64,000 nt of DNA from Escherichia phage vB_EcoS_MM-2. The stretch lies in the sequence record PV577658, one strand, 5' to 3'. Under the pieces are notes generated by a model that saw only the letters and a program-made list of their open reading frames with translations, was not told where the DNA came from and ran no database searches. Shown here piece after piece: positions 2,555 through 57,933 of this stretch (the stretch's first letter is position 1; each line of letters begins with the position of its first letter). The position numbers and the translations under genes are program-made.

Positions 2555-2946
2555 ATGGAACAAGTATATTGGCGTCAGATTGACCCTAGTTTGGTGAAAC
2601 GTGCGGAGAAGCTGCTACAACGTTGGTTGTGGGTAAGACAAGCCTCCTTCACTTTTCCGAGCAGCAAACAGATGATCCCTGTATTGGTGTTTTCCTATCC
2701 GGCTACGCCGGGGAATGGGAATTGGATTGGAATGAATTGTCTGCTATGGGTTTAATTGTTGCCCTAAATTTCTCTTTGTTCCATCCACGTGGGTTGGCCA
2801 TACGTCGTGTGCCGGGTGATGGTTGTTCGCCCCATTTTTTACAGGTGGAAGATGATATTTGGGAGTACACTCCAGATATTCTCGCAGAAGCTAAAGAACA
2901 ATTAAATCGTGTTGGGATTTATGTTCCAGGCCTAAATGATGAATGA
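2555..2946 (+). CDS. paralog 2 of the tandem pair, reading frame interrupted (needs a -1 shift near 2653-2656)
   Basis: Track ORF 2555..2755 (frame 2) ends in ASFTF and track ORF 2623..2946 (frame 1) continues SEQQTDDPCIG; joined they align with paralog 1 (ISFAFKDDIDEAPCIG). Confidence 0.4.
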
Positions 2947-3031
2947 TTTTTATTAGCTGAAATTTGTAATCCGGGCTATTAGTGCTCGGATTATTACATA
3001 ATCTTTTCAGTCGATTGACAGTCAAAATAAA

Positions 3032-3538
3032 TTGTCGTTGACAATTTGGATGGATTATGTAATAATATATGTATTGGAGGTGAGGATGTCATTCACACAG
3101 CAAGAACTTTTAGATAACTTCCGATATGAAGATGGTAAGTTATTTAGAACTACAGGAAGAAATGCAGGGAAAGAATGTTGTGTTTCTACAGGTAACGGAT
3201 ATTATCGTATATCTCTAGGGAATAGGACTATGCTTCGGCATAGAGCAATATTTTTAATGCATCATGGATACTTACCTGATTTAGTAGATCATGTGAATAC
3301 TATAAAAGGTGATGATCGTATTGAAAATCTTAGAGAGCAGACAGTATCCGGTAATCTAAGAAATATCAAATATAAGAAAGGAATGCATGTTTACCCTTCT
3401 GGTAGTAAGAACTGGCAAGTGGTATTTACTATTAACCGTAAACGTATAGTTAAAGGAACATATGACAACTATGAGGTTGCATGTTCTATGGCCAAGATGT
3501 TTAGAGGTCAATTATACGGTAGGGAATCAATCCAGTAA
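3032..3538 (+). CDS. HNH homing endonuclease (likely start at Met ~3086)
   Basis: HNH motif LVDHVNTIKGDDRIENLREQT; free-standing between unrelated genes. Confidence 0.7.
   Translation: MSLTIWMDYVIIYVLEVRMSFTQQELLDNFRYEDGKLFRTTGRNAGKECCVSTGNGYYRISLGNRTMLRHRAIFLMHHGYLPDLVDHVNTIKGDDRIENLREQTVSGNLRNIKYKKGMHVYPSGSKNWQVVFTINRKRIVKGTYDNYEVACSMAKMFRGQLYGRESIQ
3038..3066 (+). promoter_or_regulatory. sigma70-like promoter upstream of the HNH gene, inside a TTGACAGTCAA palindrome region
   Basis: Two TTGACA hexamers (~3014 and ~3038), AT-rich -10 (aataat) 17 bp downstream of the second, then GGAGGTGA RBS. Confidence 0.4.
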
Positions 3539-3546
3539 AATTTCAT

Positions 3547-3600
3547 TTGCAAGGGAGTATTATTTTATAGTATAATATTCCCATAAATGAGAGACATTAG
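3547..3600 (+). promoter_or_regulatory. early-type promoter (TTGCAA-18-TATAAT plus conserved downstream box)
   Basis: ttgcaa ... tataat followed by attcccataaatgagag, a variant of the ATTCATAAATTTGAGAG box seen after other promoters in the window. Confidence 0.55.
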
Positions 3601-4073
3601 TAAAAATTGATTTTGCTAATTTTTCTTGTTTACAATCCGCGATACGGAACAGTTAGGCTGCCCCATTAAGGGTTGTTTTAACTGTTACGTGTTAGTTTTT
3701 AAACAAATAGTTAATAGAATACTTAGCGATCTACATCCCGTAGGAACCCTGGTAAGGCCTCGAAGCAACCTAGTGTGAGGTGGTTGTGAAGTGAGACGGG
3801 AAGAGTGAAAAACTCTGAGAAGTGATGACGTAAGGTATACTGCATCTAGTATGAGCTAGTACATGAAGCATTAGGTGAGCAAATCTGGCTTAGCGGCCAT
3901 CCTCAAGGATTTGTGCGGTATAGTGAAGCGGCAGTGTAGCGTGAAAGGGGAAGTTGCCACCCCCCTTCAGTATTTGCGATTAATTTGTTGAGAAATTGAC
4001 AGTAACAGTTGTTCTATTCTTTCTGAATAGTCCTAAAGAAAACTTATTTCATTTCCAACACAGGAGTATTGTT
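3601..4073 (+). other. ~470 bp non-coding, relatively GC-rich region downstream of a promoter; candidate ncRNA or cis-acting replication element
   Basis: No ORF of 60 aa or more on either strand; local stem-loops (e.g. gaaagggg..cccccttc near 3943-3968); sits directly upstream of the large helicase gene. Confidence 0.3.
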
Positions 4074-6860
4074 GTGTTCTCAATCCTACAAGGTCATGCA
4101 GGATTTCATCGCGATTTAGCCACAGGCATTTGGCGAGAAGTTAAAGCAGAAGACTATCTTTTTGCTAAAAGATTTTCCTCAAAGCATCCTGAAGGTAAAC
4201 CAGCTTCAATGCCCTTCAAGTTTGATGTAATTGATGAAGTTGATCCTCAAACCCTAGTAGAAATGCTCCCTCTTATGAGACGTTTAACGTCTGACCCTCA
4301 TATCGTTGCGGTACGAGGTCGATGTCTTGCACCCAAAAATAATGTGCGGCGTAAGAAGGGCAACTTTAATGTATCTAACCCAAGTCATATAATTGCAATG
4401 GACGTGGATGGTATTGTAGATACAGGTGGTTGTAACAAGTTTGATCTTGTTGGCATGGCTCGACATATTATTAGAATGTTAAATAGTATTAGTGAGGATA
4501 TGTTTCCTCTTGATGCAGGGTTTATTGCTCATGCATCGTCTTCGGCTGGGCTAAAACCAGGTATCCGAATGCACTTAATACTAGAATCTAATGTTAAAGT
4601 AACTCAGGGTCAAATCAAATTCTTATTTACATCTATCAATGAAAGTAGTAGACAAAAGTATGGCTTTGATATTGCCGACTTAGCTTATTACTCTTCCGTA
4701 CAGCTCCATTATTTTGCAGATCCGTTATTTACCGATGGTATAGTAGATCCGTTTAAGGCGGAGGGTGCTTCACGTCTGGTATTTGTTAAGGGTTCTAAAG
4801 TAAACTTACCTAATAATCTGGTTGACTATGAAACAACTAGAGGTGAGTTTAAGGAGGAGTTTTACTCTTTACTCGATCAAATTAAAGGTAAAAAAGCTGC
4901 CTCCGATAAAGTAGAGGAAACTATCAGCGAACTAGAAGAAGCTGAGGATGGAGTGTATCTACGTATCATACCTAAACTCTATCACAGAGCTTTAGAGGAT
5001 GGTGTTGATTTTGCATGGCTAGAAAAAGAAATCCGTCCAGCCTTATCAGAATATATTGCAACCAAAGATAATAGTCGTAATATTCAAGATTACTTTAATA
5101 ACGGTCGTAAACAGGCTCTGAAAGCATTTGTTAATAATTCTAAACGCGATATACCTGATGTTTTAAAAGGTATTCCACTTAAAAAGCTAGAAACTAACTC
5201 TCTAGAAACTGATAACTTCTTGAAATTAAATACTGTACCACCAGAAGGTTATATGACTTTTGTAAAAGCAAGTCTAGGTACAGGTAAAACTACGGCGGTT
5301 GTGCGTTGGTTAGATTCAGGAGTTATTAAAGGTAATTTCTTAGCAATTACCAATACTCGAGCACTGGTATCTTCAAATGCTAAGAAATTTAGTGCAGGAC
5401 AATATGATAAGTCTGTAGATATGCTTAATTTTAAGCGTGGTGCTATTGACCGTATGTCCACAACTATTCACTCTTTGCATAAGTTCAAGAGTTTTATTGG
5501 TCAAATCGATGCAATCTTTATAGATGAATGTGATGCTGTAATGAATGACCTATTATTCGCCCCGGTTGTTAAACAACGTCGTGAATGTATTCAGGTTCTT
5601 CGGGATATTCTTGCAACTGCAAAAATCATTATATTATCTGATGGGGATATTAGTGCAGAAACAATTGAAGCATATGGTTCTTTAATTGAGTTTGATAAAC
5701 CGGTTGCATTTTATAATCATCACCGAAAAATGCTATCAAAAGCTCATGCCTACGAGTTCCCTGATGAATCCAGTATTTGGGTTGCACTTCAGACTTCTCT
5801 AGAGATGGGTGAGAAATCTATCCTAGTATCTGACTGTGGGCCGGATGAACTGAATGAGAAGGGCATGGCGTTGCGTCGTAATACGGGTGCGTTAGTTAAG
5901 GAAATCCACTCAAACTCTACGTCTGATGTAGATATTCGACGTATTCTGGATTACACAACTAATGAGTTAATTGACCAACAAATTGATTGCTTATTATGTA
6001 GTCCATCCGTAACGAGTGGTGTTGACTTCAACTATTTTGATAACGTATTCGTTATTACTAGAACCAGTAACCAAGCGCCAAACATGCGTTTTCAAGCAAT
6101 CAGGCGCGACCGTGGTGCTCAGAACATTTATTATTTTATTGATAAATCTACGAGTGGATTCTCCGCAGGCTCTGAACAATATAATATTGATGAAGGTTGG
6201 CTGGAGTTAGCACAGCAATTATACGCACGTCGTAGGGAGCTGGAGTCTAGGAACTATACTAGTACTTTACGTTATTACTTGCTTGATCAGGGTGCAACTA
6301 TTGATATTTTCAGTGAAAGCTGGGGAACTATCGAAGGTGCAGGTAAAGAGTATACAGAAGAGCGAATCAAAGCCATTTTGTATTCAACTCCTGATTATTG
6401 TGCTCCACGCCATGCAGATGCATATGAAGCTAAACTACTTCTTGTTCGCTATTATCATCTTGAGTCTATTAAAGATGTAACAGTTGAGCATGTTGAGCAA
6501 TACATTAAGGATAAACCGAATGATCGAGCGGCATTCTTCCATAAAATGCACGAGATGTTCTGGGAAGATATTAAGAAGTGTTCAAATGTCACTATCAAAC
6601 CATTCATAGAAGCTCTGAAAGGCAAGAAGAAAGATTTCTTCCTTAAAACAGGTCAGAGTGCTAACCCAAAATATGCCAGAATGTATCTTGGTATGATGGG
6701 TATTGGCAAGGATATGAACACGGAGAATATTGTAGACTGGTACAGAACTTATTGTAAAATCGAGTGTATGCCAATTCCTTTCAAATTCATGACAGAGGAA
6801 GAGAAGGCTATGGCAGAAGAAGTACTGTCCGAACTTGGAGCAACTAATGAAGACGCATAA
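3996..6860 (+). CDS. large P-loop NTPase / helicase, putative replication initiation or origin-binding protein (probable start GTG ~4074)
   Basis: Walker A LGTGKTT and Walker B FIDECD; AGGAG RBS 7 nt before an in-frame GTG at ~4074; about 930-954 aa. Confidence 0.6.
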   Translation: MTVTVVLFFLNSPKENLFHFQHRSIVVFSILQGHAGFHRDLATGIWREVKAEDYLFAKRFSSKHPEGKPASMPFKFDVIDEVDPQTLVEMLPLMRRLTSDPHIVAVRGRCLAPKNNVRRKKGNFNVSNPSHIIAMDVDGIVDTGGCNKFDLVGMARHIIRMLNSISEDMFPLDAGFIAHASSSAGLKPGIRMHLILESNVKVTQGQIKFLFTSINESSRQKYGFDIADLAYYSSVQLHYFADPLFTDGIVDPFKAEGASRLVFVKGSKVNLPNNLVDYETTRGEFKEEFYSLLDQIKGKKAASDKVEETISELEEAEDGVYLRIIPKLYHRALEDGVDFAWLEKEIRPALSEYIATKDNSRNIQDYFNNGRKQALKAFVNNSKRDIPDVLKGIPLKKLETNSLETDNFLKLNTVPPEGYMTFVKASLGTGKTTAVVRWLDSGVIKGNFLAITNTRALVSSNAKKFSAGQYDKSVDMLNFKRGAIDRMSTTIHSLHKFKSFIGQIDAIFIDECDAVMNDLLFAPVVKQRRECIQVLRDILATAKIIILSDGDISAETIEAYGSLIEFDKPVAFYNHHRKMLSKAHAYEFPDESSIWVALQTSLEMGEKSILVSDCGPDELNEKGMALRRNTGALVKEIHSNSTSDVDIRRILDYTTNELIDQQIDCLLCSPSVTSGVDFNYFDNVFVITRTSNQAPNMRFQAIRRDRGAQNIYYFIDKSTSGFSAGSEQYNIDEGWLELAQQLYARRRELESRNYTSTLRYYLLDQGATIDIFSESWGTIEGAGKEYTEERIKAILYSTPDYCAPRHADAYEAKLLLVRYYHLESIKDVTVEHVEQYIKDKPNDRAAFFHKMHEMFWEDIKKCSNVTIKPFIEALKGKKKDFFLKTGQSANPKYARMYLGMMGIGKDMNTENIVDWYRTYCKIECMPIPFKFMTEEEKAMAEEVLSELGATNEDA

Positions 6861-7365
6861 ACCAATGCCTCCTATGGCATTTATCCTAGAAAAGCTTAGG
6901 TATGACGAAAGTACTGGGGACTTAATTTGGTTATCTGGCCCAAGGAAGGGAAAGGTAGCGGGCTCCAAAATGAAAACTGGGAGACAGCTAGAGTTTATGA
7001 TAAATGGGGGGCGGACAGCTTACTTAGCCCATAGAATAATCTGGTTTATAAAGACAGGTGAAGATCCTGGAGATAAAACTATTGACCATAAAGACGGTGA
7101 TAGTTTAAACAACTTGTGGGATAATTTACGTAAGGCTACCTATTCCGAAAATGGAAAGAATAAGAAGTGTTCTACTAATTCTACCGGATTCACTGGAGTT
7201 GTAAAACGAGGTAATAGGTATATGGCCTACGCTTACTGCGATGGAAAGCAACATATTTTTGGTAGACGAGATACCCCGGAAGAAGCCCATCAGCTATACC
7301 TTAGGGGAGTTAAAGAGCTGTTTGGTGAATTTAATCCCTCGGAGAGATATGACAGTGAAGAATAA
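6835..7365 (+). CDS. HNH homing endonuclease with AP2-like DNA-binding domain
   Basis: IDHKDGDSLNNLWDNLRKATYSEN (HNH); GFTGVVKRGNRYMAY (AP2-like); start overlaps the 3' end of the upstream gene. Confidence 0.7.
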   Translation: MEQLMKTHKPMPPMAFILEKLRYDESTGDLIWLSGPRKGKVAGSKMKTGRQLEFMINGGRTAYLAHRIIWFIKTGEDPGDKTIDHKDGDSLNNLWDNLRKATYSENGKNKKCSTNSTGFTGVVKRGNRYMAYAYCDGKQHIFGRRDTPEEAHQLYLRGVKELFGEFNPSERYDSEE

Positions 7366-57335: not shown

Positions 57336-57429
57336 TTTAAAAACTCCTGATTTAAGGGAAGAAAATAACTATCGCTAAACAGTTATATTATTGCCCCCTC
57401 ACTAAAAAAAGGGGGGCAAGGTATAACTA

Positions 57430-57837
57430 TTATTCGCCTGCGGCTTGTTTTACTTCCTCGGCAACGCCTAACAATTGCGCTACTGCGTCCAGCGTTTCAA
57501 GTTTTGCACTTTCAAGGCTTGCCAGATCATCGGCATCTTTGATAATGCCGGAATCGATAGCGTGTTTTGCAATAACGCGTACATAATGAGCTTTGCGGAT
57601 TGAACTACCGCCGCCAACTTTGCGGGGCTTACCGCTTTTTTGATATGCTTTTGCGCTGGTCAATTTTGACCGAACGGATACGGGAGAAGCCGCGCCTACT
57701 GCTTTTGCAATCTCTTTCAGGCCGTCGCTATTTGCGAAATCTAAACCGTTTTCATTAATTAACTGTTGATACATGGAAACAGCTTTCTGAGTGTTTTCTT
57801 CATTCCATGCGAATTTTGCGGTTTTAGCGTTAGTCAT
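57430..57837 (-). CDS. A2: A2-like pre-early DNA-binding protein
   Basis: 135 aa (~15 kDa), basic central region; position upstream of the A1-like gene. Confidence 0.5.
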   Translation of the reverse strand: MTNAKTAKFAWNEENTQKAVSMYQQLINENGLDFANSDGLKEIAKAVGAASPVSVRSKLTSAKAYQKSGKPRKVGGGSSIRKAHYVRVIAKHAIDSGIIKDADDLASLESAKLETLDAVAQLLGVAEEVKQAAGE

Positions 57838-57933
57838 GATGTAACTCCTATTAGTTTAATTTAAGGGATTAGATTAACTTAATGTTAATCGTTATATCCC
57901 CCTGAAATAAGGGGATATAAAGTTAACACTAAT

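Follow-up and report, generated by a model that had tools for sequence, protein, structure and literature searches.

A Covarying Structured RNA Upstream of the D2 Helicase Gene in T5-Like Phages

Introduction

Phage T5 belongs to the seven classic T phages, and phage therapy and anti-defence research make wide use of its relatives. In this article, we describe about half a kilobase of the genome of Escherichia phage vB_EcoS_MM-2 (record PV577658), of which a stretch of 64,000 nucleotides (nt), referred to below as the window, was analysed. The element occupies positions 3539–4073 of the window and lies between an early promoter and the gene for the helicase D2, a putative replication initiator. 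In hundreds of genome records, this 0.5 kb is left blank or is filled with spurious “hypothetical proteins”. We present evidence that a structured RNA family, hitherto undescribed, is encoded here in a classic group of phages, with a well-supported anatomy and no curated family to which it belongs. It is an RNA as elaborate as a large riboswitch or a small ribozyme, fixed in front of a putative replication initiator. It thus offers a new RNA family to curate and annotate, a handle on the control of D2 synthesis and on the site and mode of the start of T5 replication, and a candidate for a new RNA–protein or RNA-only function in phage infection.

The Locus Upstream of the D2 Helicase Gene

The 535-base gap (3539–4073) matches positions 57347–57881 of Salmonella phage Kenya-K16 (OQ291030; genus Tequintavirus) at 100%. 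An initial annotation, made from the sequence alone, had placed a strong early-type promoter here, and a sigma-70-type promoter is indeed present (Table 1), with its transcription start inferred at ~3583–3585. A promoter is annotated at the homologous site in the records of T5 and AKFV33, and the order of elements in T5 is identical: a terminator, the annotated promoter, ~470 unannotated nt, and the helicase gene, at a locus about halfway along the genome (59.3 kb of 121.75 kb). Between the promoter and the GTG at 4074 lie ~490 nt without an open reading frame (ORF) of more than 50 amino acids (aa). The longest ORFs in the whole gap have 50 aa (plus strand, with a TTG start and without a Shine–Dalgarno (SD) sequence), 40 aa (minus strand), and 38 aa (plus strand), which agrees with the earlier statement that no ORF of 60 aa or more follows the promoter on either strand. 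The G+C content is 0.44 in 3701–4000, against 0.32–0.35 directly upstream and 0.37 downstream, so the region is also richer in G+C than its flanks, as had been noted. No terminator-like site was found in the window from the promoter to the helicase start.

The helicase cistron begins, as annotated initially, with the GTG at 4074, which is preceded by an AGGAG SD sequence at 4062–4066; its predicted product has 928 aa, not the 930–950 aa first given. The ORF could be extended to a TTG at 3996, but the relatives align at 4074, some of them with ATG. Wong et al. (PMC3632103) characterised D2 as a bipolar SF2 helicase and proposed it to be a replication initiator, and the match of the Pfam family Herpes_ori_bp to aa 394–533 of the window helicase has the same position as the domain that they describe.

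A blastn search found the gap region in 445 phage records. The whole query was matched in 163 of them (type A, window-like), and most of the remaining records match at both ends only, with an intervening stretch of equal length (type B, T5-like). When the locus was collected by way of the helicase from 34 IMG/VR genomes and 11 metagenome contigs, a gap of 470–820 nt was found to precede the helicase gene in every one, and no ORF keeps its position among these loci. The RNA described below lies immediately upstream of D2 in all lineages, with one copy per genome. The family that we modelled comprises Tequintavirus-like phages of Salmonella and Escherichia, Klebsiella and Pectobacterium phages, and a metagenomic lineage, L045.

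Where the conservation begins is informative. Genomes with and without an HNH endonuclease gene beside the locus have unrelated promoter sequences, and homology between them restarts at TGAGAGAC (3588), a few bases past the inferred transcription start. Because homology restarts at the start of the RNA even though the promoter has been replaced, the conserved object appears to be the transcript and not the DNA upstream of it.

Covariation and the Strand of the RNA

The plus strand of the gap has a minimum free energy (MFE) of −137.5 kcal/mol (z = −3.1), and one of 100 shuffled sequences folds as well. For the minus strand, too, folding is more stable than in shuffled versions (z = −2.65), and the MFE of the plus strand is 26 kcal/mol lower. 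Independent MFE predictions gave the same architecture in eight representatives: two of type A, two of type B, a Klebsiella phage, the Pectobacterium phage lineages L077 (DU_PP_V-like) and L078 (My1-like), and L045. The module so predicted is a plus-strand RNA of ~450 nt (~3583–4030) with at least 14 helices, here called P1 to P13 (Table 1): a 5'-terminal hairpin (P1), a highly conserved element (P2), a long closing stem (P3), a core domain (P4–P11), and the hairpins P12 and P13. As far as sequence comparison can tell, the decisive evidence for this fold is covariation across lineages.

Three covariance models were used. R1 was seeded with 10 type A sequences and a structure that we drew ourselves, and covers the core (209 positions, 54 base pairs (bp)). 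It matched L045 (E = 1e-28), L077 (7.5e-19), L078 (2e-9), and, at full length, the Klebsiella phages (0.016); matches to the T5-type loci were local only. R2, rebuilt from the matches of R1 over the same 209 positions, added the T5-type (type B) loci at full length and at exactly the expected coordinates (E = 0.012–0.08). R3 was built from a type-A-only seed and covers 3690–4001 (312 positions, 93 bp). Its matches were L045 (4e-40), L077 (4e-31), L078 (5e-21), and the Klebsiella phages (2.5e-7); on the T5-type loci, four of eight were matched at full length (E = 8e-6 to 4e-4) and the other four locally, in P10–P11 only (E = 0.1–0.36). All three models matched the plus strand only, and found a single copy in the 64-kb window.

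In the R3 alignment, 93.6% of 1706 cells are standard pairs, and 76 of the 93 pairs have changed on both sides, including 25 of the 29 modelled pairs of P3. None of 500 column shuffles reached any of five measures, and when the 3' partners were slid by one to three columns, 37–44% of the cells were paired, with 21–30 pairs. Considered alone (alignment A7), the core gave 93.4% paired cells and 41 of 54 pairs changed on both sides, again with none of 500 shuffles as good and with 32–43% in the slid controls. P1 and P2 together have 29 RNAalifold pairs, 10 of them with changes on both sides.

Compensatory changes are also visible in trivial within-type alignments, independently of any covariance-model alignment: CUACAU/GUGUAG versus CUGCGU/GCGCAG in P4, CCCGU/ACGGG versus CCCAU/AUGGG in P5, A-U versus G-C in P8, and C-G to U-G and then to U-A in P9. 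P12 varies in this way within both types (AAGGGG/CCCCUU versus AAGUGG/CCACUU in type A; AUAUGA/UCAUAU versus GUAUGA/UCAUAC in type B). The arms of P3 form 35–42 bp in all eight representatives, with 4–10 G-U pairs and longest uninterrupted runs of 8–23 bp. In six lineages, these arms are only 47–73% identical, and the cognate duplexes have energies of −30 to −40 kcal/mol, against −10 to −27 kcal/mol for non-cognate ones. For the outermost 10 bp of P3, the evidence is limited to folding and duplex energies.

G-U pairs make up 11.3% of the paired core cells and occur in 19 of the 54 pairs, one of them being the invariant closing U-G of the P11 loop. Since the complementary strand, or a cruciform, would have A-C mismatches at these places, and since the plus strand has the lower MFE, the functional molecule is most simply the plus-strand RNA. 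In other words, pairs are maintained by compensatory substitutions beyond the controls, and on one strand. The suggestion of the initial annotation that a structured non-coding RNA (ncRNA) or long leader is made from the early promoter is therefore strongly supported, with a fold that covaries in six diverged lineages and G-U pairs that place it on the plus strand. The local stem-loops that it had mentioned exist, and the folding and covariation analysis that it had proposed for T5-like genomes yielded compensatory changes in at least six lineages of Markadamsvirinae-like phages.

Architecture of the RNA

In the core, P4 opens a junction with the P5 domain, P8, and P9.0/P9, the last of which encloses a variable hairpin and the P10–P11 hairpin. 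The most conserved sequences are in the latter hairpin: the 8-nt motif CUUAGCGG is invariant in all 21 distinct aligned core sequences, as is CTTAGCGG in 21 of 21 aligned domains, and TTAGCGG is present in every lineage but the most distant one, L048 (helicase 43% identical). The stems of P10 and P11 covary around these invariant nucleotides, with six of six P10 pairs changed on both sides. The P7b loop and the P10 bulge may also pair with each other. This candidate pseudoknot (PK1) reads GAGG/CCUC in type A, UUAAGG/CCUUAA in L077 and L078, and UAGAG/CUCUA in L045, with three of five positions covarying; complements in type B (UAGG/CCUA) and in the Klebsiella phages (CAUGU/ACAUG) were seen by inspection only. 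The comparison comprises few independent events, and the pairing is accordingly best regarded as a candidate.

Outside the core, P1 has changes on both sides in RNAalifold on nine diverse sequences, and Klebsiella and Pectobacterium phages keep the hairpin with a different sequence. P2 is near-invariant in type A, type B, and Pectobacterium phages; its outer helix covaries in the Klebsiella phages (GAGCAU/AUGCUU to GAGUAU/AUACUU) and its inner hairpin reads CGGU/GCCG in L045. This element occurs once per genome and, in IMG/VR, is confined to T5-like contigs. P3.1 takes the forms GCG/CGU, AGUG/CACU, AUUG/CAAU, GACU/GGUC, and GUU/GAC, and P12, of which other lineages carry different stems, has seven of seven pairs changed on both sides. 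P13 is predicted in the window, L014, L045, and L026; similar hairpins were found by inspection in L077 (CUUUCC/GGAAAG), L030, and the T5-type L023, where the MFE structure pairs the stretch otherwise. Because no U tract follows it, P13 is not a terminator.

Table 1. Features of the RNA and its locus in the window. Helices marked “core” are numbered within the core domain (window position minus 3730).
Feature	Position	Strand	Remarks
Sigma-70-type early promoter	3547–3576	+	TTGCAA 3547–3552, 18-nt spacer, TATAAT 3571–3576; 10 of 12 consensus matches
P1	3584–3632	+	5'-terminal hairpin, 21 bp; UAAAUGAGAGA.CAUUAGUAAAA / UUUUGCUAAU.UUUUCUUGUUUA; MFE
P2	3636–3672	+	highly conserved element AUACGGAACAGUUAGGCUGCCCCAU; inner hairpin CAGU-UAG-GCUG 3650–3660
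P3 5' arm and P3.1	3679–3728	+	long closing stem; P3.1 GCG 3726–3728
AU bulge	3729–3730	+	conserved, 2 nt
Core domain	3731–3939	+	209 nt; P4–P11; covariance models R1 and R2
P4	core 1–6/204–209	+
P5	core 7–11/66–70	+	three-way domain with P6 and P7a/b
P6	core 18–20/25–27	+
P7a	core 29–32/62–65	+
P7b	core 35–40/52–57	+
P8	core 72–76/82–86	+	hairpin, GAAAA loop
P9.0	core 96–101/198–203	+
P9	core 106–110/188–192	+
P9a	core 116–119/126–129	+
P10	core 150–155/178–183	+
P11	core 157–160/165–168	+
P10–P11 motif hairpin	3880–3913	+	invariant CUUAGCGG 3889–3896; UAGC loop closed by U-G; 3' bulge UCCUCAA
PK1 5' strand	3776–3780	+	candidate pseudoknot; UGAGG in P7b loop
PK1 3' strand	3901–3905	+	candidate pseudoknot; CCUCA in P10 bulge
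P3.1 3' strand and P12	3940–3967	+	CGUG 3940–3943; P12 hairpin AAGGGG 3945–3950/CCCCUU 3962–3967, loop AAGUUGCCACC
P3 3' arm	3968–4011	+
P13	4014–4030	+	hairpin CUAUUC-UUUCU-GAAUAG, directly after P3
A/U-rich spacer	4031–4073	+	~45 nt, predicted mostly unpaired; holds SD AGGAG 4062–4066
D2 helicase cistron	4074–6860	+	928 aa, GTG start; T5.108 homologue, bipolar SF2 helicase, putative replication initiator

Some variations at the 5' end should be mentioned. A second promoter-like site (3607–3636; TTGATT, 18 nt, TACAAT; nine of 12 matches) lies inside P1, and would, if active as a promoter, yield a transcript without P1. An optional insert of 97 nt, bounded by duplicated TTTTTCTT, is found between P1 and P2 (window ~3621) in, for example, L005, L025, and L032 (~2480–2580). 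Single copies of it were found in the genomes of 51 GenBank phages, with both core types and always at the same site; P1 still forms in its presence, and the folding z-score of the insert is only −1.8. In addition, ACGGAACAGUUA in P2 (3644–3655) and the first part of the P3 5' arm (3679–3690) have a complementarity of 92%, and the local hairpin that they could form might compete with P3 during transcription. The alternative pairing is probably not a conserved switch: it is weakened in L026, and by inspection no complement is evident in L077 or L078.

Exchangeable Cores and Distant Relatives

The rates at which the parts of the locus change are uneven. Between L014 and the window, the third codon positions of D2 are 0.69 identical and the core is 0.90 identical, a difference that points to purifying selection on the RNA sequence. 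The T5-type loci have nearly the same identity to the window at the third positions (0.67), but only 0.52 in the core, which is lower than the values for the far more distant L045 (0.68) and L077 (0.64), while the flanks of the same T5-type cores are near-identical to those of the window (0.94 in P1–P2 and 0.88 in the tail). With a divergent core between conserved flanks, the core behaves as an exchangeable allele, of which types A and B are the two forms, and these alleles have been exchanged independently of the phylogeny of the flanking genes. Such exchange between otherwise similar genomes suggests that the RNA carries a specificity that is under selection.

Beyond the modelled family, the distant L033, L034, L035, and L036 share the P10–P11 hairpin with CUUAGCGG, the matches of R2 with filters off to L033, L035, and L036 being local and non-significant (E = 0.7–2.3). 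The same search found nothing credible in L048 or in Vibrio or Aeromonas phages. Upstream of the D2 homologue in Demerecviridae of Vibrio (Gary, D302, PG07) and Aeromonas (TS3), there are nevertheless 630–1400 nt without credible genes. The leaders in question (765–1393 in L085, ~900–1600 in L087, 824–1459 in L088, and 1–1408 in L089) are unannotated or filled with “hypothetical proteins” of 30–56 aa. Folding z-scores of the Vibrio and Aeromonas leaders are −2.8, −1.1, and −3.4; they have no detectable homology to the RNA described here, and none is matched by the covariance models. Within the leader of PG07, a stretch of ~60 nt is duplicated. Vibrio phage D254 is different, since a 720-nt gene abuts D2 and there is no long leader.

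Comparison with Known RNA Families

A covariance-model search against RNA families had been proposed in the initial annotation, and no family was recognised. With the 4227 models of Rfam 15, which include group I and group II introns, RNase P, 6S, tmRNA, T-box, riboswitches, GOLLD, ROOL, OLE, raiA, HEARO, and GIR1, the search of window positions 2800–4800 with E up to 10 returned only chance-level matches to small nucleolar RNA and microRNA models (16–20 bits), and the same search of nine diverse relatives gave no match within the leader and no recurrent family. In the literature searched, we found no T5 ncRNA, leader, transcriptome, or origin map for this locus.

Several more specific identities were considered and rejected. 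A group I intron is inconsistent with an element that lies between a stop codon, or a terminator and promoter, and a start codon, and not inside a gene; the model RF00028 gave no match, and the HNH gene next to the RNA is missing from most relatives. A riboswitch or T-box was rejected because there is no terminator-like site and no match to an Rfam riboswitch or T-box model; a pairing that is predicted in the window, between 3639–3645 and the spacer that precedes the GTG, is not kept outside Tequintavirus on inspection of the sequences. Other resemblances, for none of which a model matched, were treated as coincidence: to the CR-V region of RNase P (ACAGAA..CCGGCUUA), to the L11-binding region of 23S rRNA (GGCUUAG..GCC) and the T-box sequence, to lambda boxB (U-GAAAA-A in P8) and the group I R/S element, and to the branching-G context of retrons (UUAGCG). 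Most of these by-eye resemblances are not conserved across lineages.

The retron deserves a further comment, because in msr-msd, too, internal hairpins are enclosed by a stem in which the flanking inverted repeats pair. The UUAGCG-type motif is reminiscent of the branching-G context of Ec86. Unlike a retron, the T5-like locus has no reverse transcriptase gene, the motif is in the loop of a 4-bp hairpin and not beside the closing stem, a second CUUAGCG that does lie beside P3 is not kept outside type A, and there is no Rfam match.

Possible Functions of the RNA

How might an RNA of this kind act? Our tentative preference is for a function in cis, in which the RNA affects the expression of D2 as a platform for processing and protein binding. 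The early promoter would transcribe the self-folding module of ~450 nt as the 5' leader of the D2 mRNA, and the duplex of P3 would insulate the core. By analogy with known substrates, P3 is a likely target of a double-strand-specific nuclease such as the host RNase III: at 35–42 bp, the covarying stem exceeds the ~20 bp or more of an RNase III stalk in all eight representatives. Cleavage would release the core and give the D2 mRNA a new 5' end at P13, with an accessible A/U-rich ribosome-binding region. The invariant loops (UUAGG in P2, UUAGCGG in P11, and UAG...GGU in the P7 loop) are probable contacts for a protein that would set the amount or timing of D2, and D2 itself, another early phage protein, or a host factor are candidates for that protein. 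The strict synteny with D2, the lack of a terminator, and the long leaders in distant relatives all favour a role linked to D2.

The closest known counterparts are the leaders and spacers processed by RNase III, such as the T7 R sites, the lambda N leader, the E. coli pnp and rnc leaders, and the stems flanking 16S and 23S rRNA. In these, as here, there is a long-range duplex of more than two helical turns, which flanks a folded RNA or is situated in a 5' leader; the T5-like duplex lies within a phage early transcript before a cistron. The T5-like stalk differs in enclosing a conserved 209-nt multi-junction core, which is absent from the T7 and lambda sites, and there is no sequence similarity; cleavage of the T5-like stalk is a prediction. 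RNA structures in the leaders of replication genes are also known from T4, where the gene 32 pseudoknot, the gene 43 operator, and the RegA sites bind protein for autoregulation, but those structures have 20–40 nt and lie at or over the ribosome-binding site, whereas the T5-like RNA has ~450 nt and ends ~45 nt before the start codon. By analogy, the T5-like RNA would work most like the structured leaders processed by RNase III, and would resemble the ornate ncRNAs, discussed below, in size and complexity.

There are several objections to a function in cis. No expression platform is obvious, since the ribosome-binding site follows the folded module at a distance of ~45 nt and is not sequestered in a conserved manner. 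In size and complexity, the RNA, with its 14 or more helices and candidate pseudoknot, exceeds known phage translational operators and resembles trans-acting or catalytic RNAs. Cleavage of P3 by RNase III is predicted from the length of the helix alone, and the literature searched yielded no transcript, processing, or binding data on the locus. As for the structure itself, fitting an alignment with a covariance model biases it towards the structure that was modelled, the seeds are related, and the cells are not independent events.

A doubtful but substantial alternative is that the core (P4–P12, ~240–300 nt) is excised from the leader and acts away from the D2 mRNA as a stable ncRNA. Such an RNA could serve as a ribonucleoprotein scaffold, could titrate a host RNA-binding protein or defence system as a decoy or sponge, or could be a ribozyme. 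In that case, being transcribed together with D2 would provide early timing and nothing more. The RNA does have the hallmarks of a large tertiary-structured RNA (multi-way junctions, a GAAAA loop, invariant loop nucleotides, and a candidate loop–bulge pseudoknot), its ends are joined by a closing stem, the module is separated from the ribosome-binding site, and the exchange of core alleles (52% core identity where the D2 third positions have 67%, and 90% where they have 69%) is the pattern of loci under conflict-type selection. The ornate ncRNAs GOLLD, ROOL, OLE, raiA, and HEARO are similar in having several hundred nt, many covarying helices, invariant loop nucleotides, and an association with phages. 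They differ in that the T5-like RNA has a fixed 5'-leader position before a replication gene, and is neither near tRNAs nor free-standing, in that no Rfam model matches it at E = 10, and in that its known range is the T5-like phages of Enterobacterales. A function in trans is also difficult to reconcile with the strict D2 synteny in all lineages and with the leaders of no detectable relationship that occupy the same position in distant Demerecviridae, which point to a D2-linked role; moreover, there is no terminator or recognisable 3'-end signal, and no known family matches. We consider it somewhat unlikely that the P3 stalk releases a core of ~250–330 nt that represents a new class of large tertiary-structured, trans-acting phage RNA. 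If the core did act in trans, it might be a cofactor or scaffold of the D2 initiator complex at T5 origins, a decoy against host RNA-binding or reverse-transcriptase-based defence, or a ribozyme, with types A and B of the core as variants of different specificity that phages exchange.

Less probable again is a role as a replication pre-primer or origin transcript, in which the G-rich structured RNA would form a persistent hybrid with its template or be handed to the replication machinery. ColE1 RNA II, T4 oriF and oriG, and the T7 primary origins are the models for this, the fold of the RNA controlling primer formation. Replication origins are commonly located in or beside initiator genes, and here a strong promoter and ~450 nt of structured, G-skewed non-coding RNA (GC skew of +0.18 to +0.26 in 3601–4000) directly precede the putative initiator D2, at a locus near the middle of the T5 genome. 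For T5, internal origins of bidirectional replication have been reported (Bourguignon 1976, as cited in PMC3632103). The origin transcripts of ColE1, T4 (as R-loops), and T7 (phi1.1A/B) likewise combine a strong promoter, a structured non-coding RNA of several hundred nt, and a locus linked to replication initiation, but the T5-like RNA is far more elaborate, and no unwinding element or hybrid-forming signature was identified in it. A pseudoknotted multi-junction fold with invariant loops goes beyond the needs of known pre-primers. The locus also contains no iterons and no pronounced AT-rich unwinding element, there is no local inflection of the GC skew (the upstream 3.5 kb is equally positive), and the literature searched gave no sequence-level map of T5 origins.

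It is very improbable that the locus is an element of the DNA itself, such as D2-binding sites, a cruciform, or an origin, with an incidental RNA fold. There are long inverted repeats (for example, 3690–3708 with 3983–4001), and the minus strand too folds below its shuffles, as mentioned above. Against this, the G-U pairs, 11% of the paired cells, would not strengthen a cruciform, the plus strand has a fold that is more stable than that of the minus strand by 26 kcal/mol, the conserved sequence begins where transcription starts, and no binding motif is repeated. Covariation extends to short-range hairpins, junction helices, and the loop–bulge pairing, none of which DNA-binding sites need. An iteron-type or initiator-binding origin was rejected specifically, since there are only four weak two-copy direct repeats and the G+C content is higher than in the flanks, not lower. 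Thus the cis-acting replication element that the initial annotation had listed among its options gains no support at the DNA level, with neither iterons nor a skew switch.

Small protein-coding genes or decaying spacer DNA have a negligible chance of explaining the locus: ORFs of 38–60 aa can be drawn in some genomes and a few records annotate two or three of them as “hypothetical protein”, but among eight lineages the ORFs differ in position, frame, and strand, with TTG or GTG starts and no SD sequence, L026 has no plus-strand ORF of at least 25 aa, and covariation with covariance-model E-values down to 4e-40 rules out neutral DNA. Even the conserved stretch of P2 is read in different frames in different lineages, and no conserved short ORF, which would have spoken against a structured RNA, was found in the eight lineages.

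Neighbouring Genes

The N-terminal part of D2 (residues 1–390, window 4074–5243) matched no Pfam family and, by sequence, no solved structure. It contains a conserved HIIAMDVDG and conserved Ser/His stretches, which are reminiscent of archaeo-eukaryotic primase motifs. In some GenBank records, the D2-type protein is labelled “DNA primase”.

Upstream, an HNH_3 homing-endonuclease gene (3086–3538) separates the T5.107 homologue from the RNA; it is an insertion that T5 and most other relatives lack. In the genomes that carry it, the terminator and promoter have been replaced by other promoter DNA (window 3540–3582), and homology resumes at 3588. L028 has a scar, in which the HNH-type promoter and the 5' half of P1 are duplicated upstream of an ordinary terminator and promoter. 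In the window, there is also a direct repeat (3540–3564 and 4046–4070, 76% identical over 25 nt), so that ATTTCATTTGCAAGGGAGTATTATT, which follows the HNH stop codon, resembles ATTTCATTTCCAACACAGGAGTATT, which precedes the D2 start; this repeat may be a trace of the endonuclease cassette recombining into the locus. Further upstream, 2117–2545 and 2623–2946 are adjacent paralogous DUF7415 genes, the homologues of T5.106 and T5.107. On the other side, the D2 gene overlaps at its 3' end with a second HNH-type endonuclease ORF (6835–7365; 176 aa, with the motif IDHKDGDSLNN), which has the position of hegI in T5. Unrelated to the locus studied here, the GC skew of the window changes from positive to negative near 27–28 kb, which presumably marks the switch from rightward early to leftward late genes.

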